Positions 16,119 to 52,311 of a stretch of 64,000 nucleotides of DNA are shown here, in pieces. Location of the stretch: the NCBI GenBank assembly GCA_946186925.1, contig CAMHPA010000011.1, positions 5,130 to 69,129 of the forward strand, in the 5' to 3' direction. The notes below the pieces were generated by a model. That model saw nothing but the letters and a program-made list of their open reading frames with translations, was not told where the DNA came from and did not search any database. A program made the translations under genes and the position numbers. Numbering within the stretch: position 1 is the stretch's first letter; every line of letters starts with the position of its first letter. The DNA comes from an uncultured Bacteroidota bacterium. Lineage in GTDB: Bacteria; Bacteroidota; Bacteroidia; Bacteroidales; SZUA-534.

Positions 16119-17693
16119 TTATTCATTTATCATCACCCGTTTTGCCGTACTGCCAACCTTCACAATGTAAATGCCGGCGGTGTTGATGTGGATTTCCGTA
16201 GAGACGTCACAATGTGGCGTCTCTGCAACCAACCTGCCCATTGTATCATAAACACAGATTTCATCTGTGGCGTTTTCAACCACAATGGTGTTGTCGTGGG
16301 CGTAGATGTTTATGTTGGTGGCTGTTTCGGTGATAATACCGACGGAAGATAAATCTGTTTTCCAAACAATCTCACCTTCAAAATTATATAAATTATTTCC
16401 AAGCCAATCTTTATCCCAATCATCAGGTCTTTCTTCCACATAACAATATATTGTAGCCTTACAATCTCCAAAAGCACAAACACCAATTGTTTTGACAGAA
16501 TTAGGAATGTTTACTGAAATCAAACCAATGCATTCACAAAATGAATATTTGCCGATGTTAGAAACCGTATTAGGTATGTCTATTGAAGATAACCCAATGC
16601 AATTTTTGAATGCATAGTTGTTGATGCTTGTAACCGAATTAGGAATGGTGTAAGAACCTGCTTTTTGTGCTGGACAACAAATGAGAGTCGTTTTATCTTT
16701 GTTAAACAAAACTCCATTTTCTGATGAGTATTTCGCATTATCGTCAGCAACATTTATTTCCTTCATTTTGATACAATCACCAAACGCGTTGTCGCCGATG
16801 TTTGTTACTGAACTTGAAATTGTTACATATTCCAAACCACCACAATCATAGAATGCAAAATCGCCAATGTTTGTTACTGAATTGGGAATGTCAACAACTG
16901 ATAGTCCGACGCAATGGTTGAATGCACTTTTGCCAATGTTAATAACTGAATTTGAAATAGTTATTGATGTTAGTTCTGTGCAATTATTAAACGCATATTC
17001 ACCGATGCTTATAACCGAATTAGGAATTTCAATTGAAGTCAGACCAAGACAAGTATCGAATGCATAATCTCCAATTTTTGTGACAGAATTTGGAATGTTT
17101 ACCAAAGTCAGGTCTCTACAACCCGAAAATGCATAATCACCAATGGTGGTGACAGATTCCGGAATTATTACAGAAGTCAAGCCACTGCCAGAAAAAGCAC
17201 TCTCACCAATACTTATAACAGAATTGGGTATGGTTATCGTAGTTAATTTCCAACAACTTGTGAATGTGTTGTAGCTAATACTTGTTAAAGAAGTAGGGAT
17301 TAATATTTCTTTCAATTCGTAACACCCCAAGAAAGCATATTCCTCAATAATAGATACGGTATTGGGGATATATACTGATGTGAGATTAGTACAATAACTG
17401 AACGCACCTCTGCCAATGCTTTTAACCCGGTCGGGAATACTAACAGATGTCAGACTATGGCAACCATCAAAAGCATCTTCACTAATATTTGTAACGGTAT
17501 AAGTTACATTGTTGTAATCTACTGTAGAAGGAATTACAAGGTCTCCTGAAAGTTCGTCAGTGTCTTTACTAACCGAAACCTCGTGTTTTGCGGTGTCGAT
17601 AATAGTGTATTTCAAGTTACCAACAACAAACTCTTGAGCAAGAGTCTGCCCAACAATCATTGTGGCAAATAGAAAAACGAAAAATCCTTTCAT
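16119..17693 (-). CDS. BspA-like leucine-rich-repeat surface protein with T9SS C-terminal sorting domain
   Basis: About 15 tandem ~23-aa repeats of the form IPNSVTxIGxxAFxxCxxLTS(I/V). Signal peptide MKGFFVFLFATMIVGQTLAQ. The C-terminal ~80 aa (NINIYAHDNTIVVEN...GIYIVKVGSTAKRVMINE) look like a Por/T9SS CTD. The gene is clearly more AT-rich than its neighbours (hand count ~35% vs ~55% G+C on single 60-nt lines). Confidence 0.85.
   Translation of the reverse strand: MKGFFVFLFATMIVGQTLAQEFVVGNLKYTIIDTAKHEVSVSKDTDELSGDLVIPSTVDYNNVTYTVTNISEDAFDGCHSLTSVSIPDRVKSIGRGAFSYCTNLTSVYIPNTVSIIEEYAFLGCYELKEILIPTSLTSISYNTFTSCWKLTTITIPNSVISIGESAFSGSGLTSVIIPESVTTIGDYAFSGCRDLTLVNIPNSVTKIGDYAFDTCLGLTSIEIPNSVISIGEYAFNNCTELTSITISNSVINIGKSAFNHCVGLSVVDIPNSVTNIGDFAFYDCGGLEYVTISSSVTNIGDNAFGDCIKMKEINVADDNAKYSSENGVLFNKDKTTLICCPAQKAGSYTIPNSVTSINNYAFKNCIGLSSIDIPNTVSNIGKYSFCECIGLISVNIPNSVKTIGVCAFGDCKATIYCYVEERPDDWDKDWLGNNLYNFEGEIVWKTDLSSVGIITETATNINIYAHDNTIVVENATDEICVYDTMGRLVAETPHCDVSTEIHINTAGIYIVKVGSTAKRVMINE
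16198..16226. repeat. near-perfect palindrome (AGAGACGTCACA / TGTGGCGTCTCT) embedded in the T9SS CTD coding sequence
   Basis: The sequence is gtAGAGACGTCACAaTGTGGCGTCTCTgc, 12-nt arms with one mismatch. In the gene frame it encodes AETPHCDVST. It shares the GTAGAGAC...GTCTCT arms with the palindrome at 17725-17758. Confidence 0.8.
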
Positions 17694-17724
17694 AATTGGT
17701 TTTGTTTAAATATCGTTATTTGGC

Positions 17725-17758
17725 ATTGTAGAGATGCGATTAATCGCGTCTCTACAAT
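17725..17758. repeat. 34-bp palindrome between DJ-1 stop and LRR gene start
   Basis: The sequence is attgtagagatgcgattaatcgcgtctctacaat, 17-nt arms with one mismatch (a G-U pair in RNA). The location suits a terminator or insulator, but no U-run follows on the minus strand. Confidence 0.8.
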
Positions 17759-43405: not shown

Positions 43406-44305
43406 ATGGCTACAAAACTCAAAAACTGGATAGACGCCGCGCGCTTGCGCACATTGCCACTTTCGGTGTCGGGAATAATTGTTGGTTGCGGCATGGCTTT
43501 CGCCGAAGGTGTATTCAACTGGCCGCTGCTTGCACTGCTTTTTGCAACAACGGTGCTTTTGCAGATATTAGGCAATTTCGCCAATGATTTGGGCGATTTC
43601 CAGCATGGAACAGACAACGCCGAACGCGTTGGGCCGCAGCGTACACTGCAAGGCGGCGGGCTCACCGTTAAAGCTATGAAGCGCGGAATTGTGACTGCCG
43701 CCGCGCTATCGTTCGCTGTCGGACTGCTGATGCTCTGGGTGTCGTTCGGTTTTGGTGTGGGCTTCTGGGTGTTTGTGGGCATCGGCATCGCCGCCATTGT
43801 TGCCGCAATGCGATACACAATGGGCCGCAATCCGTTTGGCTATCGCGGTTTGGGCGATCTGATGGTATTGGTTTTCTTTGGATTTGCCACCGTTGCCGGC
43901 TCGTACTTTATTGTTTGTCATCAAATTACCTTAGAGGCCGTGCTGATTAGCATAGCTATTGGCTTTATGAGCGTTGGTGTTCTGAATGTCAATAATTTAC
44001 GCGATTCATCCGGCGACCGTCAATCGGGCAAAATGACCATTGTCGTCAAGTTTGGCACACGCTTCGGGCAGGTTTACCACCTTGTCTTGTGTCTTTCGGC
44101 GATATTGCTGATTGTTGTCAGTCTGCTTGCTTGGCATTGCACCACAGATCTGCTTTGGGTGTTGGTTCCGTCGGCGTTATTGCTGGTTCACGGCATTAGA
44201 GTTTTCCGGGCCGCCGATGTCAAAACTCTCGACCCCGAGCTGAAAAAACTATCGCTCACAACGCTGCTGATGTCGGTTCTTTATGCTGCGGCAGTGTTGG
44301 TTTAG
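43406..44305 (+). CDS. menA: 1,4-dihydroxy-2-naphthoate polyprenyltransferase
   Basis: UbiA-family membrane protein. WIDAARLRTLPLSVSGIIVG, the NDLGDFQHGTD Asp-rich motif, and a second motif NNLRDSSGDRQSGKMT. ATG at 43406. Confidence 0.85.
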   Translation: MATKLKNWIDAARLRTLPLSVSGIIVGCGMAFAEGVFNWPLLALLFATTVLLQILGNFANDLGDFQHGTDNAERVGPQRTLQGGGLTVKAMKRGIVTAAALSFAVGLLMLWVSFGFGVGFWVFVGIGIAAIVAAMRYTMGRNPFGYRGLGDLMVLVFFGFATVAGSYFIVCHQITLEAVLISIAIGFMSVGVLNVNNLRDSSGDRQSGKMTIVVKFGTRFGQVYHLVLCLSAILLIVVSLLAWHCTTDLLWVLVPSALLLVHGIRVFRAADVKTLDPELKKLSLTTLLMSVLYAAAVLV

Positions 44306-44432
44306 ACTGCCGATTGCCATGTGAAGGTGATGGTGAAAATGTCGAAAATCTTAATAATCAGTTATTTATTGTTGGCAAATTAAGCGAGGATGTGGCAGTG
44401 AAAAACTCGAAAAAACAAAAATCAGAAAATGT

Positions 44433-44460
44433 TTGCCACTTGATATTTTTTATACATTTG
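44433..44460 (+). promoter_or_regulatory. candidate promoter of tRNA-Pro
   Basis: TTTG at 44432-44435 and TACATTTG (TAnnTTTG) at 44453-44460, 15 nt upstream of the mature tRNA 5' end. The 17-nt spacer is slightly short. Confidence 0.4.
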
Positions 44461-44475
44461 CACCGCCAAAAGGAA

Positions 44476-44548
44476 CGGAGTTTAGCGCAGTTGGTAGCGC
44501 GCTACGTTCGGGACGTAGAGGTCGCTGGTTCGAATCCAGTAACTCCGA
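44476..44548 (+). tRNA. tRNA-Pro (anticodon CGG)
   Basis: Hand-folded cloverleaf. Acceptor CGGAGTT/AACTCCG, D-arm GCGC-AGTTGGTA-GCGC, anticodon arm CTACG-TTCGGGA-CGTAG (C34 G35 G36, G37), variable AGGTC, T-arm GCTGG-TTCGAAT-CCAGT, discriminator A. Length 73 nt, no encoded CCA. Confidence 0.95.
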
Positions 44549-44550
44549 CA

Positions 44551-44579
44551 AGCTCAACTGAAAAGTTGGGCTTTTTTTG
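44551..44579 (+). terminator. terminator after tRNA-Pro
   Basis: Stem agctcaact / agttgggct (one G-U pair) with a GAAA loop, followed by TTTTTTT. Confidence 0.6.
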
Positions 44580-44672
44580 TTTTATGCCAGGAACTTGCGC
44601 CTTTGTTTGTGACTTGTGATTACTATCTCAAATTGACATCGTCCAACACCCAACACCAATCAATTCAGCACT

Positions 44673-45449
44673 TTAAATCAACCCGTGAATCAGCTTGTAA
44701 GCAATCGAGCCAGGCTGCGGGCTTGCGGGGCAGTTGTCGCGGCTGAACCAGTCGGCGTCGGCAATCTCGTCTTTCTGCAGGCGGATTTCGCCGCTCTCGT
44801 AATCGGCTGTGTATCCGAGCATTAGTTGGTCGGGGAAGGGCCAGCTCTGACTGCCGCGGTAGCGGATGTTCTTCACGCGGATGCCGATTTCTTCCTGCAG
44901 CTCGCGCTCAACGGCGTGCTCGGGCGTCTCACCGCCTTCAATGAATCCCGCAATGCAGGCGTAGATGTCCTGATTGCGCTGAACGTGGCGGGCAAGCAGA
45001 ATCTTGTCATCGCGGCTCACAAGCACAATCACGCACGGCTCGATGCGCGGAAAATGAATCTTGCCGCACTGCGGACACTCGCGCGCTGTAAACTGCTTGC
45101 TCTCAATGAGTTTTGCACCACACGTGCAGCAAAAATTCGTGCTCTGCCGCCAGTTGGCCACCGCCTTTGCCCGCGATGTGCGGAAAACAGTCGGTTCGTC
45201 GCTCTCGTTGAAGAACTGACGGATGGTTTTGGTGACGAAACGGTCGGGCAGTGGCTCGGCTGTTTCGAAGTTAAGAACGCAAATACCAAATTCTTGTTCT
45301 TCAAACAAATCGGCATTGCTATCTAAAGTTTTTATTTCAGTCAGGTCGGCCAGCGTAAGGGCGCTGCCGTCGGCTTTCAGCACAATGTTGCGCCCCGTTA
45401 GCGCAAAGCATTGGCAATTAGTTGTTTGCGGATTCGCTATTATTGGCAT
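44673..45449 (-). CDS. nudC: NAD+ diphosphatase / NADH pyrophosphatase NudC (zinc ribbon + Nudix)
   Basis: Zinc ribbon CCTCGAKLIESKQFTARECPQCG. Nudix box GFIEGGETPEHAVERELQEEIG. The downstream SQSWPFP motif is typical of NudC. ATG at 45449. Confidence 0.85.
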   Translation of the reverse strand: MPIIANPQTTNCQCFALTGRNIVLKADGSALTLADLTEIKTLDSNADLFEEQEFGICVLNFETAEPLPDRFVTKTIRQFFNESDEPTVFRTSRAKAVANWRQSTNFCCTCGAKLIESKQFTARECPQCGKIHFPRIEPCVIVLVSRDDKILLARHVQRNQDIYACIAGFIEGGETPEHAVERELQEEIGIRVKNIRYRGSQSWPFPDQLMLGYTADYESGEIRLQKDEIADADWFSRDNCPASPQPGSIAYKLIHGLI

Positions 45450-45583
45450 AGTCTGATTGTTTTCGCTTTTAAATGATATGGCAAAGTTGGGGAAAATTCG
45501 GCTCAAAACATAGGCAAGTAGGTTGTAAATTTAACAGAGAAACTATATTTCAACGCATAATTGTATTTTGTATGAGAAGAATA

Positions 45584-45784
45584 ATTGTCTGAAAGACAAT
45601 ATTTTCATAACCGCGGGTAAGCGAAGCGTAACCCGTGGTATCGTACACTCAAGTTCTGCAGACTGAAAGACTGAACCTTTGTATTGTTCACTCTTTCAGA
45701 GTGTTTCTTTTTTTTGCTTTGGCAACCGGCGGCTGCGCTACGCTTGCGGCCGGTTATGCAAATTCAGTCCTTCGGACTGTTTTG
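45584..45784 (+). ncRNA. hairpin-dense intergenic module; candidate small structured RNA or repeat element (function unknown)
   Basis: Five hairpins lie within 200 nt. H1 attgtct-gaa-agacaat (45584-45600). H2 accgcgggt-12 nt-acccgtggt (45610-45639). H3 cactct-ttc-agagtg followed by tttcttttttttg (45689-45716). H4 aaccggc-18 nt-gccggtt (45724-45755). H5 cagtcc-TTCG-ggactg followed by tttt (45765-45784). H3 and H5 look like + strand intrinsic terminators, yet they sit inside a divergent promoter region. Confidence 0.3.
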
Positions 45785-45914
45785 TGTAAAAACGTATTCT
45801 TGCGAAAAATCTTCACTTTTTTCAAAAATTTTTCAAACCTCTGCTTCAATCTCGCATAGGTTGCGGTTTCATTTGCGACAAATTTTATTGTTTAACTTTT
45901 AAAAAGCATTGATT

Positions 45915-46268
45915 ATGAAAGCAAGAAAGATGTTTTTTATGGATTGCCACTTGGCAGGACGTATGTATCACGATGCCGACGAGGTTTGGGACGAACTGAA
46001 GGTTGGCACGCAGTTGCAACTAGTGCTTGACACCGAAAACCGCTACGACCCCAAAGCCGTGGCCGTTTTGTACAACAAACAAGGCGAAGAAGAACCGTAT
46101 TTACTCGGCTACATTCCGCGTGGGCGGAACTCAGAAATCGCTTGTTTCTTAGAGTCTGGCTGGACAAATGTTTTCAGTTGCCGTATTCGCCGCATTACAC
46201 CCGATGCACACCCTGAAAATCAAGTGCAGCTCACAATCAGTGTCAACCGCAACCCCGAAGCCCAATAA
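45915..46268 (+). CDS. stand-alone HIRAN-domain protein
   Basis: KMFFMDCHLAGRMYHDADEVWDELKVGTQLQLVLDTENRYDPKAVAVLYN...LLGYIPRGRNSEIACFLESGW...SCRIRRI follows the HIRAN pattern (aromatic pair, G-x-L-x-L-x-x-E-x-x-N-x-Y-D-x-x-A-V, then GY(I/L)PR). ATG at 45915. Confidence 0.75.
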   Translation: MKARKMFFMDCHLAGRMYHDADEVWDELKVGTQLQLVLDTENRYDPKAVAVLYNKQGEEEPYLLGYIPRGRNSEIACFLESGWTNVFSCRIRRITPDAHPENQVQLTISVNRNPEAQ

Positions 46269-46295
46269 GGGCTGAAAGGTTTGAGTGCCGAACTT

Positions 46296-46326
46296 GCAGA
46301 CGGGCGTTGAGCCCGTTTGCTTTTTT
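46296..46326 (+). terminator. strong rho-independent terminator between the HIRAN gene and the mcrB-like gene
   Basis: 10-bp stem gcagacgggc / gcccgtttgc (includes a G-U pair) with loop gttga, followed by TTTTTT (46321-46326). Confidence 0.7.
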
Positions 46327-46335
46327 GGGGGTGAG

Positions 46336-46367
46336 TTTGAAAGGGATAGATATTATTGTTAGATTTG
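46336..46367 (+). promoter_or_regulatory. candidate Bacteroidota promoter for the mcrB-like operon
   Basis: TTTG at 46336-46339, a 20-nt spacer, then TAGATTTG (TAnnTTTG) at 46360-46367, 30 nt before the ATG at 46397. Confidence 0.5.
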
Positions 46368-46396
46368 GAAATGAAAAATGATAAAAACGATTTAAT

Positions 46397-47998
46397 ATGC
46401 AATTTAACAAGCAGAAATCACAAACCGATAGGCTTTGGATGTGGAATAAAAATGATATATGGAACGACGGCGTAACCATTTTTTCAACCAGTATTTTAAA
46501 AATGGGGGACTCCGCCCAAGGAAAGTTGGATTTTAAGTCATTTGAAACCAAAGCAGATTTAAGGACAGAATATCAAAGAATTGTTGGAAATACAGACCCA
46601 GTGATTCCCAATATGTATTGGCAATTTATGCACGAAGTCCAACCTAACGATATTGTTGTTGTGTTTGAAACCATTAAGGAAAATGGTACATTAAATCATT
46701 TGTTATATGGTTGGGGACGATTTACGTCAGAATGTAAAATTGTGGAAACAGATAATTACCCATTACAACGCGATGTGGTTTGGCATTTGCCAGCATTGTT
46801 AGAACCTGTAAAAGACATAAATACAAGTAATGCTATATATTTCCATTTAGTTGAAGGTGAGGGAGCAATAACAATTAAAAAACTATTAGGAATTGATATC
46901 AATAACATACAAGACTCTATGATACAGAAATATATCAACGTATTAAAATCCAACCACAACCTAATCCTAACAGGCGCCCCAGGCACAGGCAAAACCTATT
47001 TGGCAAAGCAGATAGCCCAGGCAATGGGTTGCACAGACAATGAAATCGGCTTTGTCCAATTCCACCCGTCGTACGACTACACCGACTTTGTTGAAGGTTT
47101 GCGGCCACTGAACGATGATGGCGGAAATGTCGGATTCGAACGCAAAGACGGGGTTTTCAAAGCCTTTTGTGCAAAGGCACTATCATTTAATACGAAATAC
47201 GAATGGTTGATTAATCATTTACAAACTAGACAAGCACCTATTGTTTTGGAAAGACCACGAAGCGAATCTTTTGAAGTGACTGTCGATAATTCTACTTTAA
47301 GGATTAATGGAGAATCAGTAACGAAAGAATTATTTAAGAGTTATTATGATGGAACTAAAACAGACAGGTGGTTTAATACACATTTTAAAAAGATACTTGA
47401 TTACATTGACAAGAATTATTTTGTAGTCTTCATTATCGACGAAATCAACCGCGGTGAAATCAACAAAATCTTCGGCGAGTTGTTCTTCTCAATCGACCCA
47501 GGCTATCGCGGCGAGAAGGGCCGAGTGCAGACGCAGTACCAGAATATGGTTGAAGATGGCGATGCTTTCAAAAAAGGCTTCTTCGTTCCCGAAAACGTCT
47601 ATATCATTGGTACAATGAACGATATCGACCGAAGCGTTGAGAGTATGGATTTCGCCTTCCGCCGCAGGTTCGCGTTTGTCGAGGTTAAGGCGGATGAAAA
47701 CACAGGAATGCTCAATGGAAAGGTGTGGAAAGACGACGCAATCAAACGAATGAATAGTCTGAACGCCACAATCGAGAAAATCGAGGGACTTTCGTCGGCT
47801 TACCACATAGGTGCAAGTTATTTCTTGAAACTTGATAATTATAATGGTGATTTCAAACAGTTATGGAAATATCACTTGGAAGGTCTTTTGTTCGAGTATC
47901 TACGTGGTACACAAAGTGTTGGCGAGAATATGCGGAAACTTGAGAAAGCCTACAATTTAAACAACACCGCAGCCGATGATTCGGATACCGACAACTGA
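46397..47998 (+). CDS. mcrB: McrB-like AAA+ (GTPase-type) restriction motor with an unassigned ~185-aa N-terminal domain and an ~80-aa insertion between Walker A and B
   Basis: Walker A NLILTGAPGTGKTY (aa ~189), FHPSYDYTDFVEG, Walker B FVVFIIDEINRGEINKIFGELF (aa ~344), IIGTMNDIDRSVESMDFAFRRRF. All are hallmark McrB/AAA_5 motifs. The N-terminal region (YWQFMHEVQPNDIVVVFE...LLYGWGRFTSE) might be a PUA/EVE-like reader, but this is unproven. Confidence 0.85.
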   Translation: MQFNKQKSQTDRLWMWNKNDIWNDGVTIFSTSILKMGDSAQGKLDFKSFETKADLRTEYQRIVGNTDPVIPNMYWQFMHEVQPNDIVVVFETIKENGTLNHLLYGWGRFTSECKIVETDNYPLQRDVVWHLPALLEPVKDINTSNAIYFHLVEGEGAITIKKLLGIDINNIQDSMIQKYINVLKSNHNLILTGAPGTGKTYLAKQIAQAMGCTDNEIGFVQFHPSYDYTDFVEGLRPLNDDGGNVGFERKDGVFKAFCAKALSFNTKYEWLINHLQTRQAPIVLERPRSESFEVTVDNSTLRINGESVTKELFKSYYDGTKTDRWFNTHFKKILDYIDKNYFVVFIIDEINRGEINKIFGELFFSIDPGYRGEKGRVQTQYQNMVEDGDAFKKGFFVPENVYIIGTMNDIDRSVESMDFAFRRRFAFVEVKADENTGMLNGKVWKDDAIKRMNSLNATIEKIEGLSSAYHIGASYFLKLDNYNGDFKQLWKYHLEGLLFEYLRGTQSVGENMRKLEKAYNLNNTAADDSDTDN

Positions 47999-49295
47999 TA
48001 ACTCAACTCGCACGCTGACAGACAGTGAGTTAGCCGCCAAATCCGACATTGAACTGATTTCTGACAAGAAAATCAGCGATTTGCTGTCGGGGCAGAAGAA
48101 CCTGCTTGTCTTTCCGCTCGATTTGAAACAGCACGGCGACGAAATCGGCGATGACCAGATTCTGTCGTTTCCCGACGGCAAAATCAGCACAGGCAACATA
48201 ATGGGCTTTGTGGGCGTGAACCAGACGCAAATCGACATTCGCTCGCGTTTCGCCCAAACCGACGGCAACGACTATTTCCTGCACTATATGTTGCAGAAAG
48301 TGTTTGCAATCAATCTGTTCGATTTGAAGCACGACACAAGCGCCGAGCGGATTTTCGATTTCCTGTTCTATCTGTTTCCCCATTTTCTGCGGAAGGCGGT
48401 GGCGCAGGGCGTTTTCAAGAAGTACCGCCACTTTGAGCACAACGACGCCAACATTCGCGGCCTCATTGATGTGAGCCGCCATATCCGCCAGAACATTCCG
48501 TTCCGCGGTACGGTGGCCTACACCACGCGCGAGCACACCTACGACAACGAACTCACGCAACTTGTTCGCCACACCATTGAGTTCATTCGCGGCAAGGAGC
48601 AGGGGCAGGCAATTCTGAACAACGATGCCGACACCAAAACGGCTGTCAGCCAGATTGTTATGGCCACGCCAACCTACAACGCCCGCGAGCGCGCCAAAAT
48701 CGTCAGCCAGAACCTTCGGCCCGTGCGGCACCCGTACTTTTCGGCCTACACCGACTTGCAGCGGCTCTGCCTGCAAATCCTTCGCCACGAGGAACTCAAA
48801 TACGGCCGCCAGAAAGACCAAATCTACGGCATTCTGTTCGACGGTGCTTGGCTTTGGGAGGAGTATTTGAATACGATTCTGAAGGATTTGGATTTCAAGC
48901 ACCCGAAGAACAAGGAAAGCCGTGGCGGTATCAGAATGTTTGAAAAGCCTGATGATGAAAACTTTTTCGACAAAAACAGCCGTCGTCTATATCCCGATTT
49001 TTGGAAAGAAAACTTCATTCTCGATGCCAAATATAAGCGTTTAGACAATGGAGTTGGCCGCGAGGATTTGTACCAGGTTGTTACTTATATGCATTGTATG
49101 AGGGCTGATAACGGCGGTTTTGTGTATCCTGTTGAAACAGAATCTAAAACAGAGAAATATGGACTTGCAGGCTACGGCGGTACAATGAGGTTGATTGGCT
49201 TGCAAGTACAGCACCAGTGCGGTTCGTATACTGATTATGTTGCTGCAATGAAAGGTGCGGAGAGCAATTTGTTGGAGTATTTGAAGCAAACCTGA
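47976..49295 (+). CDS. mcrC: McrC-like PD-(D/E)xK nuclease subunit
   Basis: The start overlaps mcrB by 23 nt. Its length and position are right for McrC. The C-terminal motif RRLYPDFWKENFILDAKYKRL has the D...(D/E)xK pattern, followed by DLYQVVTYM. Confidence 0.8.
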   Translation: MIRIPTTDNSTRTLTDSELAAKSDIELISDKKISDLLSGQKNLLVFPLDLKQHGDEIGDDQILSFPDGKISTGNIMGFVGVNQTQIDIRSRFAQTDGNDYFLHYMLQKVFAINLFDLKHDTSAERIFDFLFYLFPHFLRKAVAQGVFKKYRHFEHNDANIRGLIDVSRHIRQNIPFRGTVAYTTREHTYDNELTQLVRHTIEFIRGKEQGQAILNNDADTKTAVSQIVMATPTYNARERAKIVSQNLRPVRHPYFSAYTDLQRLCLQILRHEELKYGRQKDQIYGILFDGAWLWEEYLNTILKDLDFKHPKNKESRGGIRMFEKPDDENFFDKNSRRLYPDFWKENFILDAKYKRLDNGVGREDLYQVVTYMHCMRADNGGFVYPVETESKTEKYGLAGYGGTMRLIGLQVQHQCGSYTDYVAAMKGAESNLLEYLKQT

Positions 49296-49320
49296 AAACC
49301 AATGTGTATATTTGGCCATA

Positions 49321-50478
49321 ATGAAGACCGATTGGAAAGCATATTGGGAGAGAAAGCGAAAAGCGGAAGGTTCGGAAAAGCCAAACAGCGTATATCGTCC
49401 GCACACCAAGTGGTACAATTACAAAGGTGCAGGTGTGTATATGATAACCATTGTCACCTACAATCGAAAGCCGATACTTGGTGAATTGAATAACGACACC
49501 AGCAATCCGCGAGTCGAACTGTCAGCACTCGGAAAATATGTTGAGCAGCAATGGTTGCAGATACCAGCCGTTCAAGCCTTGCACAAACGCCGCGTCAGTC
49601 TGCTTGGTCACCAGGTTATGCCCGACCATTTTCACGGTATACTGCGTGTGGATGCGGATTTGGATGTGTCAATGGGAGAAATAATCCGTGGATTCAAGAT
49701 AAGTTGCACAAAAGAGTGGCGTCAAAAATATCAGACATATATGTCTGATATAGAATTGGAAAAGAAGAAGAGCCACCTTTCACACATATCACAAAAGAAA
49801 CGCCAGGCGTATTATGTAACCCACCCCGAAATGGCGCCGCTTTTTACCGATGGCTATGACGACACCATTTGCTTTCACGATGGCCAACTCAACAATGTAA
49901 TCAACTACGTTCGCGATAATCCGCGTCGCGCCATACTCAAACGAGCGAACCCGCAGTTGTTTGTGCTGAATCAAAACATTGAGGTTGCAGGCTTTCGATG
50001 CACAACACTCGGCAAGCAGTTTTTGCTCGATTATCCGCAAAAGGCCGCATTGCAATGCTCTCGCTCGCTGACGCAAGAACAGATTGATAAGCAGAAAGAG
50101 CAATGTTTGGCCGATGCCGAGCGAGGAACAGTTTGGGTTAGCGCTTGTATTTCAGAAGGTGAGAAGCAAATTAGCAAAGCCTTGCGCGAGGCAGGTTTCC
50201 CGATTATCATTCTGCTCAAAGATGGCTTTCCAAAACCCGATAGTCCGCACTGTAAGTATTTCAAGCCGCAAGGGGCATATTTTGAGGCTTGCGCCGATGG
50301 TCGGCTATTGCTTGTCGAACCAACCCTGCAATTATTCGATGACCGAACAATCGAAGCCCGTGTATCTCAAAAAGCAGGAATGCTACCGCACGACACGTTG
50401 CGGTATAAATTTTTGGCACTCAATGCCTTCGCTCAACTAATAAGCAACCAAACGCTTTGTGTTAGCAACCGTTCTTGA
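49321..50478 (+). CDS. Y1 HUH (IS200/IS605 TnpA / RayT-like) domain protein with ~190-aa C-terminal extension
   Basis: VYMITIVTYNRKPILGEL (beta 1), HQVMPDHFHGILRV (HUH = H-F-H), SMGEIIRGFKISCTKEW, and LFTDGYDDTICFHDGQLNNVINYVRDNPRRA (catalytic-Tyr helix, Y-x-x-x-N-P). The C-terminal region GTVWVSACISEGEKQISKALREAGFPIIILLKDGFP...GRLLLVEP loosely resembles a DprA/SLOG-type Rossmann motif. The ATG at 49321 is 25 nt after the mcrC stop. I could find no flanking IS-end hairpins. Confidence 0.7.
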   Translation: MKTDWKAYWERKRKAEGSEKPNSVYRPHTKWYNYKGAGVYMITIVTYNRKPILGELNNDTSNPRVELSALGKYVEQQWLQIPAVQALHKRRVSLLGHQVMPDHFHGILRVDADLDVSMGEIIRGFKISCTKEWRQKYQTYMSDIELEKKKSHLSHISQKKRQAYYVTHPEMAPLFTDGYDDTICFHDGQLNNVINYVRDNPRRAILKRANPQLFVLNQNIEVAGFRCTTLGKQFLLDYPQKAALQCSRSLTQEQIDKQKEQCLADAERGTVWVSACISEGEKQISKALREAGFPIIILLKDGFPKPDSPHCKYFKPQGAYFEACADGRLLLVEPTLQLFDDRTIEARVSQKAGMLPHDTLRYKFLALNAFAQLISNQTLCVSNRS

Positions 50479-51001
50479 ATGACCGATTTTTCCCTTCCAC
50501 CCATTCCCCAAACTTCCGTGCCAGCCAATGCGCCAGTAGCAGATTGGCGCCCACGGCCACCACAGCGGCAAGGCTGTAGATGGTGATTTCGATGGGTGAG
50601 AAGTCGGAAGTTTTGATGCAATCGGCTATCAGCCAAAGGCTTACGGGCAGAACAAAAATGCTTGTAGCAAGCGCGGGAATGTATTTGCGGATGACAACCG
50701 CCTGCCCAATGTGAACCACCAGATGCAGCGCGAAGGCGATGAACGTGCCCAGCCAGAGCAGGTTGAACGCGCGGATGCCTGTGAATGTCAATCCGCAGAT
50801 TATCAGCAGCAAAACAAACTCTTCGGCAACGGCAAGCGCGAAGCCTTCGGTGGCGGTTGTGCTCTTGAAAATGAAAGCGAATCGCGGAAAGCGTTGGCAA
50901 ATGGCGGCGGCGTTTCGGGCAGTCCACGCGCGCATTCCGATAATCTCTTCGAAATCGTGAAAAACAAACAGCAGCGGCAAAAGCCAGATGTATTGGTCCA
51001 T
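50462..51001 (-). CDS. HXXEE-domain membrane protein
   Basis: N-terminal MDQYIWLLPLLFVFHDFEEIIGM carries the H-x-x-E-E motif. There are five or six TM helices. The 3' end overlaps the convergent Y1 gene by 17 nt. Confidence 0.65.
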   Translation of the reverse strand: MDQYIWLLPLLFVFHDFEEIIGMRAWTARNAAAICQRFPRFAFIFKSTTATEGFALAVAEEFVLLLIICGLTFTGIRAFNLLWLGTFIAFALHLVVHIGQAVVIRKYIPALATSIFVLPVSLWLIADCIKTSDFSPIEITIYSLAAVVAVGANLLLAHWLARKFGEWVEGKNRSFKNGC

Positions 51002-51003
51002 TT

Positions 51004-52311
51004 TTACTCGAAATTCTCAGCCAGAAGTTTCCGTTTCCCGGCCGCAAAAGCCATCGCTGCAAAGGCAATCAGGAAGAAGACGGAGAGAAGTGCCACACTG
51101 TTGCGCATTGAGCCGGAAATCTGCTCAATGAAGCCAAATCCGAACATTCCGATGACAATGCCGATTTTCTCTGTGATGTCGTAGAAGGTGAAGTACGACG
51201 CGGTGTCGGTGGTGTCGGACGGGATGAGCATTGCGTAGGTTGAGCGCGCCTGCGACTGGATGCCGCCCATCACAAAGCCCAGGAACGTGGCCAGAATGTA
51301 GAACTGCGCGGCGTTCTGAATGAAATAGCCGGCCACGCAGATGACAATCCATATCACAAGCATCACCAAAAGCGAAGTGAAGTTGCCGTAGCGGTTTGAT
51401 ACTCTTGCAAATACAACCGAACCGAACATCGCCAGAAACTGAATGAGCAGAATCACCACAATCAGCTCGATGGTGCCGATATGCAGCTCGGCGCTGCCAA
51501 ACAGCGTGGCCACCAGCAGAATGGTCTGCACGCCCATACTCAGGAACAGGAACGACACCAGAAAAAGATTCATAACCTGCTGACGGAAAAGGTTTTTGGC
51601 AACAGTGGCAATCTCTTTGAATCCTTTCGAAAGAATGCCGGTGTCAATTTTTGTTTTTGCCTTAAACTCAGTCAGATATCGGAACGAGAACAGCGCAATG
51701 CCAATCCACCAGATGCCCACCAGCAGAAACGAGAACCGGTAGGCCGCATCTTCGCTGCCAAAGCCCCAGAAATACCACGTGTAAATCATTATCACGCTGA
51801 AAATGAACAAAATCATACTGCCAAGGTAGCCCCAGGCAAAACCTTTCGCGCTCACAATGTTGTGCAGGCGGGGTGTGGCGATTATCGGCAGAAACGAGTT
51901 GTAATAGACCGTTGCGCCCGCCCAGCCGATGACTGCTAAAATGGTCATCATCAGGCCGAAACCGATGTTGCCGCCAGTGAAAAAGTAGAGCCCCGAGCAG
52001 GCCGCCGCACCAATTGCGGTGAACATCACCATAAAGCGCTTGCGGTAGCCGCCCATATCGGCAATGCCTGATAATAAAGGCGTTATAAGAATAATTATGG
52101 CATAGCCGATGGCAATCGAGTAGTCGTAGAGAACAGTGTTTTTGATACTGTGGCCGAAAATGCTCACCATACCATTGGCAAAGGCATCTGTGGTAACCCG
52201 CTCATAATAAATGGGAAACAACGCTGACGCTACAATCAGGCTATAGACAGAATTGGCTATATCGTATGAGCACCAAGCGTTTATGACCTTCCGGTTGTTC
52301 TTCTCAATCAT
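51004..52311 (-). CDS. MFS transporter (UMF1 / Atg22-like family)
   Basis: 12 TM helices. The N-terminus VINAWCSYDIANSVYSLIV is typical of the UMF1 family. ATG at 52311. Confidence 0.8.
   Translation of the reverse strand: MIEKNNRKVINAWCSYDIANSVYSLIVASALFPIYYERVTTDAFANGMVSIFGHSIKNTVLYDYSIAIGYAIIILITPLLSGIADMGGYRKRFMVMFTAIGAAACSGLYFFTGGNIGFGLMMTILAVIGWAGATVYYNSFLPIIATPRLHNIVSAKGFAWGYLGSMILFIFSVIMIYTWYFWGFGSEDAAYRFSFLLVGIWWIGIALFSFRYLTEFKAKTKIDTGILSKGFKEIATVAKNLFRQQVMNLFLVSFLFLSMGVQTILLVATLFGSAELHIGTIELIVVILLIQFLAMFGSVVFARVSNRYGNFTSLLVMLVIWIVICVAGYFIQNAAQFYILATFLGFVMGGIQSQARSTYAMLIPSDTTDTASYFTFYDITEKIGIVIGMFGFGFIEQISGSMRNSVALLSVFFLIAFAAMAFAAGKRKLLAENFE

Follow-up and report, generated by a model that had tools for sequence, protein, structure and literature searches.

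A probably domesticated RAYT-like HUH enzyme with a predicted DprA-fold domain, its intragenic hairpin and a candidate hotspot of defence-cassette exchange in Bacteroidales

RAYT-type HUH enzymes are widespread domesticated transposases whose cellular role is still unclear. In the survey by Quentin et al. (2018), C-terminal additions occur in some RAYT subclasses and REP insertions lie inside the genes of subclass 2.4; neither a DprA-like domain nor any association with restriction is described (PMC6006769). Here we analyse a gene that combines these elements in a 64,000-nucleotide (nt) stretch of DNA, hereafter the window, from an uncultured Bacteroidota bacterium of the Bacteroidales lineage SZUA-534 (GenBank assembly GCA_946186925.1, contig CAMHPA010000011.1, positions 5,130 to 69,129, forward strand). 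The gene (window positions 49321..50478, + strand) is an intact open reading frame (ORF) with no internal stop and encodes a protein of 385 amino acids (aa), P0001, in which a RAYT-like Y1-HUH domain is followed by a DprA-like Rossmannoid domain; we refer to it as HUH-DprA. The reading that we favour, with moderate confidence, is that HUH-DprA is a domesticated RAYT-class (class 2 TnpA_Y1) hairpin-dependent single-stranded DNA (ssDNA) nuclease-ligase fused to a DprA-fold domain and situated at a hotspot for defence cassettes.

The N-terminal half (residues 1–209; 49321..49947, + strand) belongs to the Y1-HUH enzymes and has its catalytic motifs intact; nuclease/ligase activity is predicted for it from fold, BLASTP and motif invariance. 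Histidines H103 and H105 (codons within 49627–49635, + strand) lie in the HUH motif MPDHFHGIL (residues 100–108), and the catalytic Tyr196 (codon 49906–49908, + strand) lies in the helix NVINYVRDNPRRA (residues 192–204), where the class-2 tyrosine signature Y---NP is present as YVRDNP (Y196-V-R-D-N200-P201). Together with HuH, Y---NP is the signature of class-2 TnpA_Y1 enzymes (PMC6006769). H103, H105, Y196, N200 and P201 are all kept in the 85 genes checked, that is, the window copy and 84 homologues, which also form the set used below for hairpins and loci. A preliminary description of this gene, made from its sequence, was thus right to call both motifs intact, and the loss of HUH or Tyr residues in relatives, which it had considered as an argument against catalysis, is not seen. 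In Foldseek searches with the full-length AlphaFold2 (AF2) model (46 homologues; predicted local distance difference test, pLDDT, 85), the N-terminal half superposes on the TnpA proteins of IS608 and ISDra2 and on the Escherichia coli RAYT 4er8 (E 2e-5 to 1e-4), and the next group of matches consists of DprA and the DprA-like ShosA. BLASTP against the canonical short RAYT of the same genome aligned residues 30–203, which is the whole core, with E 5e-11. Scores against family models were low: Pfam Y1_Tnp (PF01797) gave 20.6 bits against a cut-off of 23 and covered residues 85–141 only, and the sole NCBIfam match, REP_Tyr_transpos (NF047646), gave 40.1 bits against a cut-off of 80 over residues 37–205. 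No PADLOC model matches the protein, and a PDB sequence search with the whole of it returned nothing significant. The K-rich insertion previously noted in the Y1 core (~residues 142–165) does exist and maps within the sole hypervariable stretch of the family alignment.

Beyond the Y1 core lie ~176 C-terminal residues that are better conserved than the core itself in the family alignment. When residues 210–385 (49948..50475, + strand) were modelled on their own with AF2 (56 sequences; pLDDT 86, predicted template modelling score 0.83), they gave a four-stranded Rossmann-like beta-alpha fold. The top 14 Foldseek matches of this isolated domain in the PDB are all of the DprA family (probability 0.94–1.0, E 5e-3 to 0.18), with ShosA (8zva) the best and DprA structures 3uqz, 4ljk, 5mll and 3maj among them, and the remaining matches have probabilities of 0.51 or less, all but one below 0.25. 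The modelled C-terminal half is therefore supported, at the level of fold, as DprA-like. It contains an invariant loop, S278-E-G-E-K282; Pfam and NCBIfam have no match on residues 210–385, including none to DNA_processg_A (PF02481), and a canonical DprA is encoded elsewhere in the same genome. A search of 1.8 billion representatives found the domain in 899 clusters; in the best 150 of these it is C-terminal, the full-length matches having the same architecture and the shorter ones being fragment-like. One match of 1082 aa was considered as a Rosetta-stone fusion and rejected, as it comes from reading through an upstream ORF full of REP-encoded repeats. The HUH and DprA-fold parts thus form a permanent fusion, and the resulting two-domain protein is without earlier description: full-text literature searches found none of an HUH-DprA fusion or of its link to restriction systems.

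Full-length homologues (340–420 aa) fall into more than 1030 clusters, almost all of which come from Bacteroidales metagenomes of the rumen and gut. The genome of the window, which is 98.8% complete, has one full-length copy, its other Y1 genes being less than 36% identical; within the genus, 7 of 16 genomes carry the gene, each with one to four divergent paralogues, and no HUH-DprA gene was found in other genera of the same family. Relative to its two closest orthologues, both domains show ratios of non-synonymous to synonymous substitution (dN/dS) of 0.17–0.21. Searches with tblastn against plasmid and phage collections gave no match to the gene, and no further genomic copies of its 3' end, or of that of mcrC, were found. 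Most relatives are metagenome-assembled genomes (MAGs), with gene calls made simply as longest ORFs, and copy numbers in relatives are uncertain either way because such assemblies collapse repeats. Given its single copy, the purifying selection, the invariant catalytic residues and its absence from plasmid and phage records, HUH-DprA has the features of a domesticated RAYT-like gene and not of an active insertion sequence (IS), in agreement with what had been proposed initially; the genome search suggested at that time, for further copies with terminal hairpins, yielded the one full-length copy and none that is flanked. Two loci contain pairs of divergent family copies a few kb apart, in one case inverted around an NAD synthase gene (L001:6001-10944), and in the other direct and placed around an McrB-like gene, with a WYL/WCX regulator upstream (L080:4805-11230).

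Inside the coding sequence, at codons 136–144, we found a perfect 24-nt palindrome (49728..49751, with no strand assigned; halves ATATCAGACATA and TATGTCTGATAT), presumably the hairpin cognate to the enzyme. No perfect palindrome elsewhere in the 64-kb window is as long; this one is unique in the genome and sits at the 5' edge of the K-rich insert. The earlier statement that there are no hairpins or REP pairs on either side of the gene is correct for the flanks of this copy but overlooked this intragenic one. Perfect hairpins of 8 bp or more, with centres that correspond to residues 135–170, are present in 49 of the 85 genes, compared to only 11.5% of codon-shuffled whole genes with such a hairpin anywhere. 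The stems vary by clade with pairing retained (for example, CAGACATATATGTCTG, CAGCCAATATTGGCTG, CAGTCAAGCTTGACTG and CGGTGGCGAAAACGCCACCG), and in the sister species G027 the window's ATAT...ATAT is replaced by ATTT...AAAT, a compensatory pair that costs two amino-acid replacements, from which we conclude that selection acts on the nucleic-acid structure.

The same hairpin also occurs 36–48 nt upstream of the start codon in L003, L038, L039, L041, L061, L105, L107 and L092; such upstream hairpins are sometimes arrayed, and in some relatives the hairpin is found again after the stop codon. Direct repeats of at least 25 nt flank 19 of 80 family genes but only 6 of 273 control genes (p = 5e-9), and L058 has three hairpin units on each side of the gene, accounting for six of the seven copies in its genome. 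The window copy and its two sister orthologues (L030 and L031) have no flanking repeats or hairpin pairs and contain the intragenic hairpin only. Because the intragenic hairpin is conserved and cognate repeats bracket many members, the family is best grouped with REPtrons rather than with hairpin-less 'effectors', and its layout is that of a REPtron-like, low-copy 'mini-REPtron'.

The unit to which the gene belongs in the window comprises a HIRAN gene, mcrB-mcrC and HUH-DprA, the last being a neighbour of McrBC and not a demonstrated McrBC subunit. At its left is a stand-alone HIRAN-domain gene of 119 aa (45909..46268, + strand; Pfam HIRAN E 2.5e-11; PADLOC PDC-M03B), which forms the left flank of a swappable cassette. 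An mcrB-like gene follows (46397..47998, + strand; 533 aa), encoding an AAA+ GTPase with a variable N-terminal DNA-binding part (AAA_5; NCBIfam McrB E 6e-40), and then mcrC (47976..49295, + strand; 439 aa; Pfam McrBC E 3.9e-54), which leaves a gap of 25 nt to the start of the HUH-DprA gene. On the other side, and outside the unit, an HXXEE membrane protein gene (50462..51001, − strand; Pfam HXXEE E 1.9e-26) converges on HUH-DprA with a 3' overlap of 17 nt; the coordinates and distances given previously for both neighbours are all correct. The four genes of the unit are probably not a single operon, because a terminator scan placed a strong terminator-like hairpin (46296–46320) 3' of the HIRAN gene. 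It is also possible that HUH-DprA has a promoter of its own in the 25-nt gap, where a pattern search identified a candidate box, TATATTTG (49307..49314, + strand), that fits the Bacteroidetes −7 box TAnnTTTG and has a chance expectation of ~0.8% in a gap of this size; no conservation of a TAnnTTTG box before the start codon was seen across the family.

Comparison with the sister species G030 and G027 showed that a block spanning 44686–50530, with a NudC-like gene, the HIRAN gene, mcrBC and the HUH gene, is kept in both, synteny with G030 ending at 50530, just 52 nt past the HUH-DprA stop codon. Within this block, the N-terminal part of McrB (46387–46946 and 47181–47426) could not be aligned with the sister genomes, whereas the rest is 92–97% identical; as judged from these alignments, the N-terminal specificity (DNA-recognition) domain of McrB is replaced. 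A different cassette, made up of DUF6361, a PLD nuclease and a helicase, is found in a third species, G021, between the same HIRAN gene and an HUH gene that is 61% identical. Besides the McrBC cassette, HIRAN stands upstream of two other types that end in an HUH-DprA homologue (L025/L035 and L062). HIRAN as a constant partner was considered and rejected, as it is present only in the clade of the window (window, L030, L031 and L035) and in L062. A tRNA-Pro(CGG) gene (44476–44549) lies 137 nt left of 44686, the left end of the block common to the sister genomes. Beyond this end G030 and G027 both have a different sequence, and the block may therefore be located in a variable region linked to the tRNA; an Rfam scan of 44300–51200 found nothing but this tRNA-Pro.

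Across the family, the gene immediately upstream (position −1) shares the strand of HUH-DprA in 61 of 81 cases, the gap between the two often being very short, and a recognised DNA-targeting defence gene occupies position −1 or −2 in at least 24 of 85 loci, a count that is approximate because the annotation of neighbours is partial. MmeI-type enzymes are found at −1 in nine loci and at −2 in one, with deleted remnants in L033 and L052, and other upstream cassettes include McrBC, Wadjet JetCD, a Mokosh-like helicase, PLD-helicase, YhcG, RhuM and GmrSD, as well as an NsnA/HEC-05-like gene with HIRAN. RhuM and YhcG adjoin the HUH-DprA gene in L052 and L093, and in L086 (235-8002) the homologue is embedded in a Type I operon with the order hsdM, HUH-DprA, hsdS, hsdR. 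Often, HUH-DprA marks the 3' border of a restriction or other defence cassette or is lodged within one, and close relatives exchange these cassettes. Downstream neighbours are mostly housekeeping genes (tRNA synthetases, aconitase, SHMT, PPDK, glycoside hydrolases). McrBC itself is upstream only in the window/L030/L031 lineage, to which an McrB-like gene in L080 can be added; the 80 other loci differ. Adjacency to MmeI has undergone at least six gains or losses on the protein tree, and between close pairs synteny breaks off in the hairpin zone, 0–100 nt ahead of the start codon. Pooled PADLOC tallies of neighbours are hard to read, since related models fill the lists, and Pfam tallies and individual annotations were used instead. 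In L083, L092, L093, L099, L103 and L109, a giant ORF of 2660–3093 aa is directly upstream of the HUH-DprA gene, followed in most of these six loci by a conserved ORF of 120–170 aa; the giant ORF has no sequence match in the PDB.

These features can be brought together in a mechanism in which the enzyme would bind its cognate hairpin wherever this becomes exposed in ssDNA (the lagging-strand template, transcription bubbles or incoming ssDNA) and nick beside it, becoming linked to the DNA via Tyr196 as a 5'-phosphotyrosine. The DprA-like domain would hold the ssDNA and may recruit RecA, and local nicking and rejoining could make the site directly upstream a hotspot for the gain, loss and swapping of restriction cassettes.

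Several points weigh against this interpretation. In ~70% of the loci, no recognised defence gene lies beside the HUH gene and the upstream gene is ordinary or unannotated, the ordinary ones including an ABC ATPase, GDH, SusD, polyprenyl synthase, Mur ligase and glycosyltransferases. The contrast in defence content between the upstream and downstream sides is drawn from Pfam family tallies and ~40 individually annotated neighbours, which is not a full DefenseFinder-type census, and mobile DNA of any kind gathers in variable islands, so that the association could arise with no role for the enzyme. The likeness to DprA is modest (TMq 0.41–0.49 over ~110–128 columns). Moreover, of the DprA/SLOG resemblance that the preliminary description had read in the C-terminal region, the fold part stands (all 14 Foldseek matches above 0.9 being of the DprA family) but the sequence part does not: the C-terminal profile aligned to 11 Bacteroidales DprA sequences with an hhalign probability of 0.55%, and compared to the PDB it gave nothing significant and no DprA. 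The DprA assignment is accordingly one of fold, since hhalign shows no sequence homology. The window copy, in turn, has one hairpin, which is not repeated upstream or on the flanks, and hence no second site can be seen at which a two-site reaction (excision or insertion) might take place. Instead of being an ssDNA substrate, the hairpin could work as a duplex operator or, in RNA, as an attenuator or a stability element.

The recurrence next to defence genes could also mean that HUH-DprA is an accessory or effector of restriction systems (McrBC here; MmeI, Type I or Wadjet elsewhere), an explanation that we regard as doubtful. Such a protein might process or cleave the ssDNA that escapes double-strand-specific restriction, such as rolling-circle intermediates, ssDNA phages and strands that enter by conjugation or transformation, or it might handle the ssDNA ends left after restriction. 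Its co-orientation with mcrC at a distance of 25 nt in a block kept in two sister species would fit, as would the strand bias and short gaps of the 61 of 81 upstream genes, the recurrence beside DNA-targeting defence systems of seven or more kinds and the position inside the Type I operon of L086. HIRAN, which flanks three different cassettes ending in the HUH-DprA gene, is a binder of 3' ssDNA ends, and the structure that the C-terminal domain matches best is ShosA, which is DprA-like and belongs to the Shosta defence system. Nevertheless, most members have housekeeping or unannotated neighbours, the partner systems have no common mechanism, no PADLOC model recognises the gene and the adjacency to MmeI changed at least six times among close relatives. 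A promoter in the 25-nt gap, if present, would further separate the gene from mcrC, and the conserved cognate hairpin in the gene itself points to a self-directed REPtron logic and not to the recognition of foreign DNA. The narrower proposal made at the outset, of recruitment as an effector or accessory of McrBC, is not supported, as only one lineage has the gene behind McrBC and the figures just cited for other neighbours and for MmeI apply to it as well.

A still-mobile, minimal IS200-like element would consist of the gene and short hairpin-bearing ends, transposing via an ssDNA intermediate as a unit of ~1.2 kb and landing in or behind restriction genes because islands tolerate it or because it prefers such targets. 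We consider this unlikely, even though family genes that are 90–98.6% identical occur in unrelated flanks, L062 and L072 being alignable in the gene only and the homology between L070 and L098 beginning 11 nt before the start codon. Identical direct hairpin arrays on both sides of the gene, reminiscent of the left and right ends (LE/RE) of IS200/IS605, are present in L058 and L044/L045, and the frequency of direct flanking repeats (19 of 80), the duplicated MmeI 3'-end fragments that bracket the gene in L047 and L052, the patchy distribution and the several paralogues per genome can be read in the same way. These paralogues, however, are only 40–60% identical within a genome, and the window genome has a single copy that, like its two sister orthologues, has no flanking hairpins. 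Purifying selection acts on both domains, plasmid and phage matches are absent, and the collapse of repeats in MAGs makes the copy numbers in relatives uncertain in either direction. Furthermore, the tyrosine motif is of the RAYT type (Y---NP) and not of the IS200 type (PMC6006769).

Distinctly improbable, in our view, is a more ambitious extension of the domesticated-enzyme reading, with HUH-DprA as the recombinase of a hairpin-dependent, ssDNA-based capture system for defence genes that would nick and rejoin at its cognate hairpin, in its own gene or just ahead of it, and so insert or exchange cassettes there, the DprA-like domain handling the ssDNA and recruiting RecA. The integron integrase, which acts on folded attC sites, offers a loose analogy. 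If true, this would explain why MmeI, McrBC, Type I, Wadjet and other cassettes end here and swap between close relatives. Finally, a relaxase- or Rep-like initiator, which would nick the hairpin in its own gene as an oriT or double-strand origin, stay on the 5' end and start island transfer or rolling-circle copying, the DprA-like domain then promoting RecA-dependent integration in the recipient, is very improbable: HUH chemistry is common to relaxases and Rep proteins, DprA loads RecA onto incoming ssDNA, a single hairpin, as in the window copy, suffices for such enzymes and cassettes are swapped between conserved flanks, but the fold matches TnpA/RAYT and not relaxases or Reps, no conjugation, mobilisation or replication genes were seen near HUH-DprA and there is no direct sign of transfer.

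A strict integron-like array, in which cassettes would be bracketed by hairpins on both sides, was also looked for and had no general support, the only case being the repeat-gene-repeat-gene-repeat order of L052. There (L052:1-2830), MmeI 3'-end pieces of ~70–95 nt with a small GC hairpin form three direct repeats, in the order MmeI end, rhuM, repeat, HUH-DprA, repeat, which resembles a cassette array or an 'insertion with long target duplication'. In L047 (2100-3800), too, duplicated MmeI 3'-end fragments surround the HUH-DprA gene.

The hairpins at 45584–45784 and the GTAGAGAC palindromes, which had been proposed as substrates for the enzyme, turned out to be members of other repeat families. 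The GTAGAGAC palindromes (window positions 16198 and 17748) belong to a GTAG-footed REP family with the consensus (T)GTAGAGACG-N8-CGTCTCTAC(A) and ~35 sites in the genome. Two copies of this family flank the canonical 206-aa RAYT on contig C84 (G000:C84; L006:1456-2076), an ordinary REPtron whose RAYT gene itself includes REP-derived sequence. The GTAG REPs of the window (16198–16226 and 17722–17755) flank an ORF at 16119–17693 (− strand), a segment absent from the sister genome G030. The other hairpins, located between HIRAN and the NudC-like gene, are part of one copy (45582–45783) of a dispersed repeat of ~200 nt that is made up of several hairpins and forms, as a whole, a large imperfect palindrome with arms at 45587–45633 and 45731–45777. 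It has at least seven other full copies in the genome, along with fragments, and no Rfam match, and looks like a miniature inverted-repeat transposable element or an element of the bacterial interspersed mosaic type; G021 has a Fic/HTH gene in its place.

Among the closest known systems, RAYT/TnpA_REP proteins (E. coli YafM, PDB 4ER8) share with HUH-DprA the Y1-HUH fold, Y---NP, low copy number, divergent paralogues, a patchy distribution and, in many HUH-DprA relatives, cognate hairpins around the gene as in a REPtron. With RAYT subclass 2.4 it also shares a hairpin (REP) inserted in the gene, in the loop between the HUH and Tyr motifs (PMC6006769). Unlike RAYTs, HUH-DprA has an obligatory and highly conserved DprA-fold C-terminal domain of 176 aa, scores below the NCBIfam and Pfam cut-offs, has a DHFH motif with no WQ motif and recurs beside restriction systems; its hairpins lack the GTAG foot and are not dispersed, with one copy in the window genome and seven in G033. 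The TnpA proteins of IS200/IS605 (IS608, ISDra2) are the best structural matches of the N-terminal half and use the hairpin-guided ssDNA cleavage chemistry that is predicted here, and direct-orientation hairpins on both sides of the gene are common to them and to some relatives. They differ in length (~130–155 aa compared to 385 aa) and in having the class-1 Y motif in place of Y---NP; as opposed to them, HUH-DprA is a single-copy gene under purifying selection as a host gene, with no tnpB and, in the window, no element ends.

DprA/Smf and ShosA have in common with the C-terminal domain a Rossmann-like core, the SEGEK loop being located where Rossmann folds bind phosphate, but the HUH-DprA domain is smaller than DprA, with four core strands and neither SAM nor winged-helix parts, and its binding of ssDNA and RecA is only predicted. 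RhuM and YhcG/DUF1016 are encoded by genes habitually lodged in restriction loci, and HUH-DprA resembles them in its placement within Type I, IIG and IV loci or at their 3' end. HUH-DprA is unrelated to either and brings its own cognate hairpins and, as predicted, recombinase-type chemistry. Three departures from described RAYTs thus distinguish it: the fused DprA-fold domain, the confinement of its hairpins to the gene and its flanks, and its recurrent place at the edge of exchanged defence cassettes. If the enzyme acts on its own hairpin, HUH-DprA would provide a compact case of an ssDNA nuclease-ligase shaping a defence-island hotspot in gut and rumen Bacteroidales.

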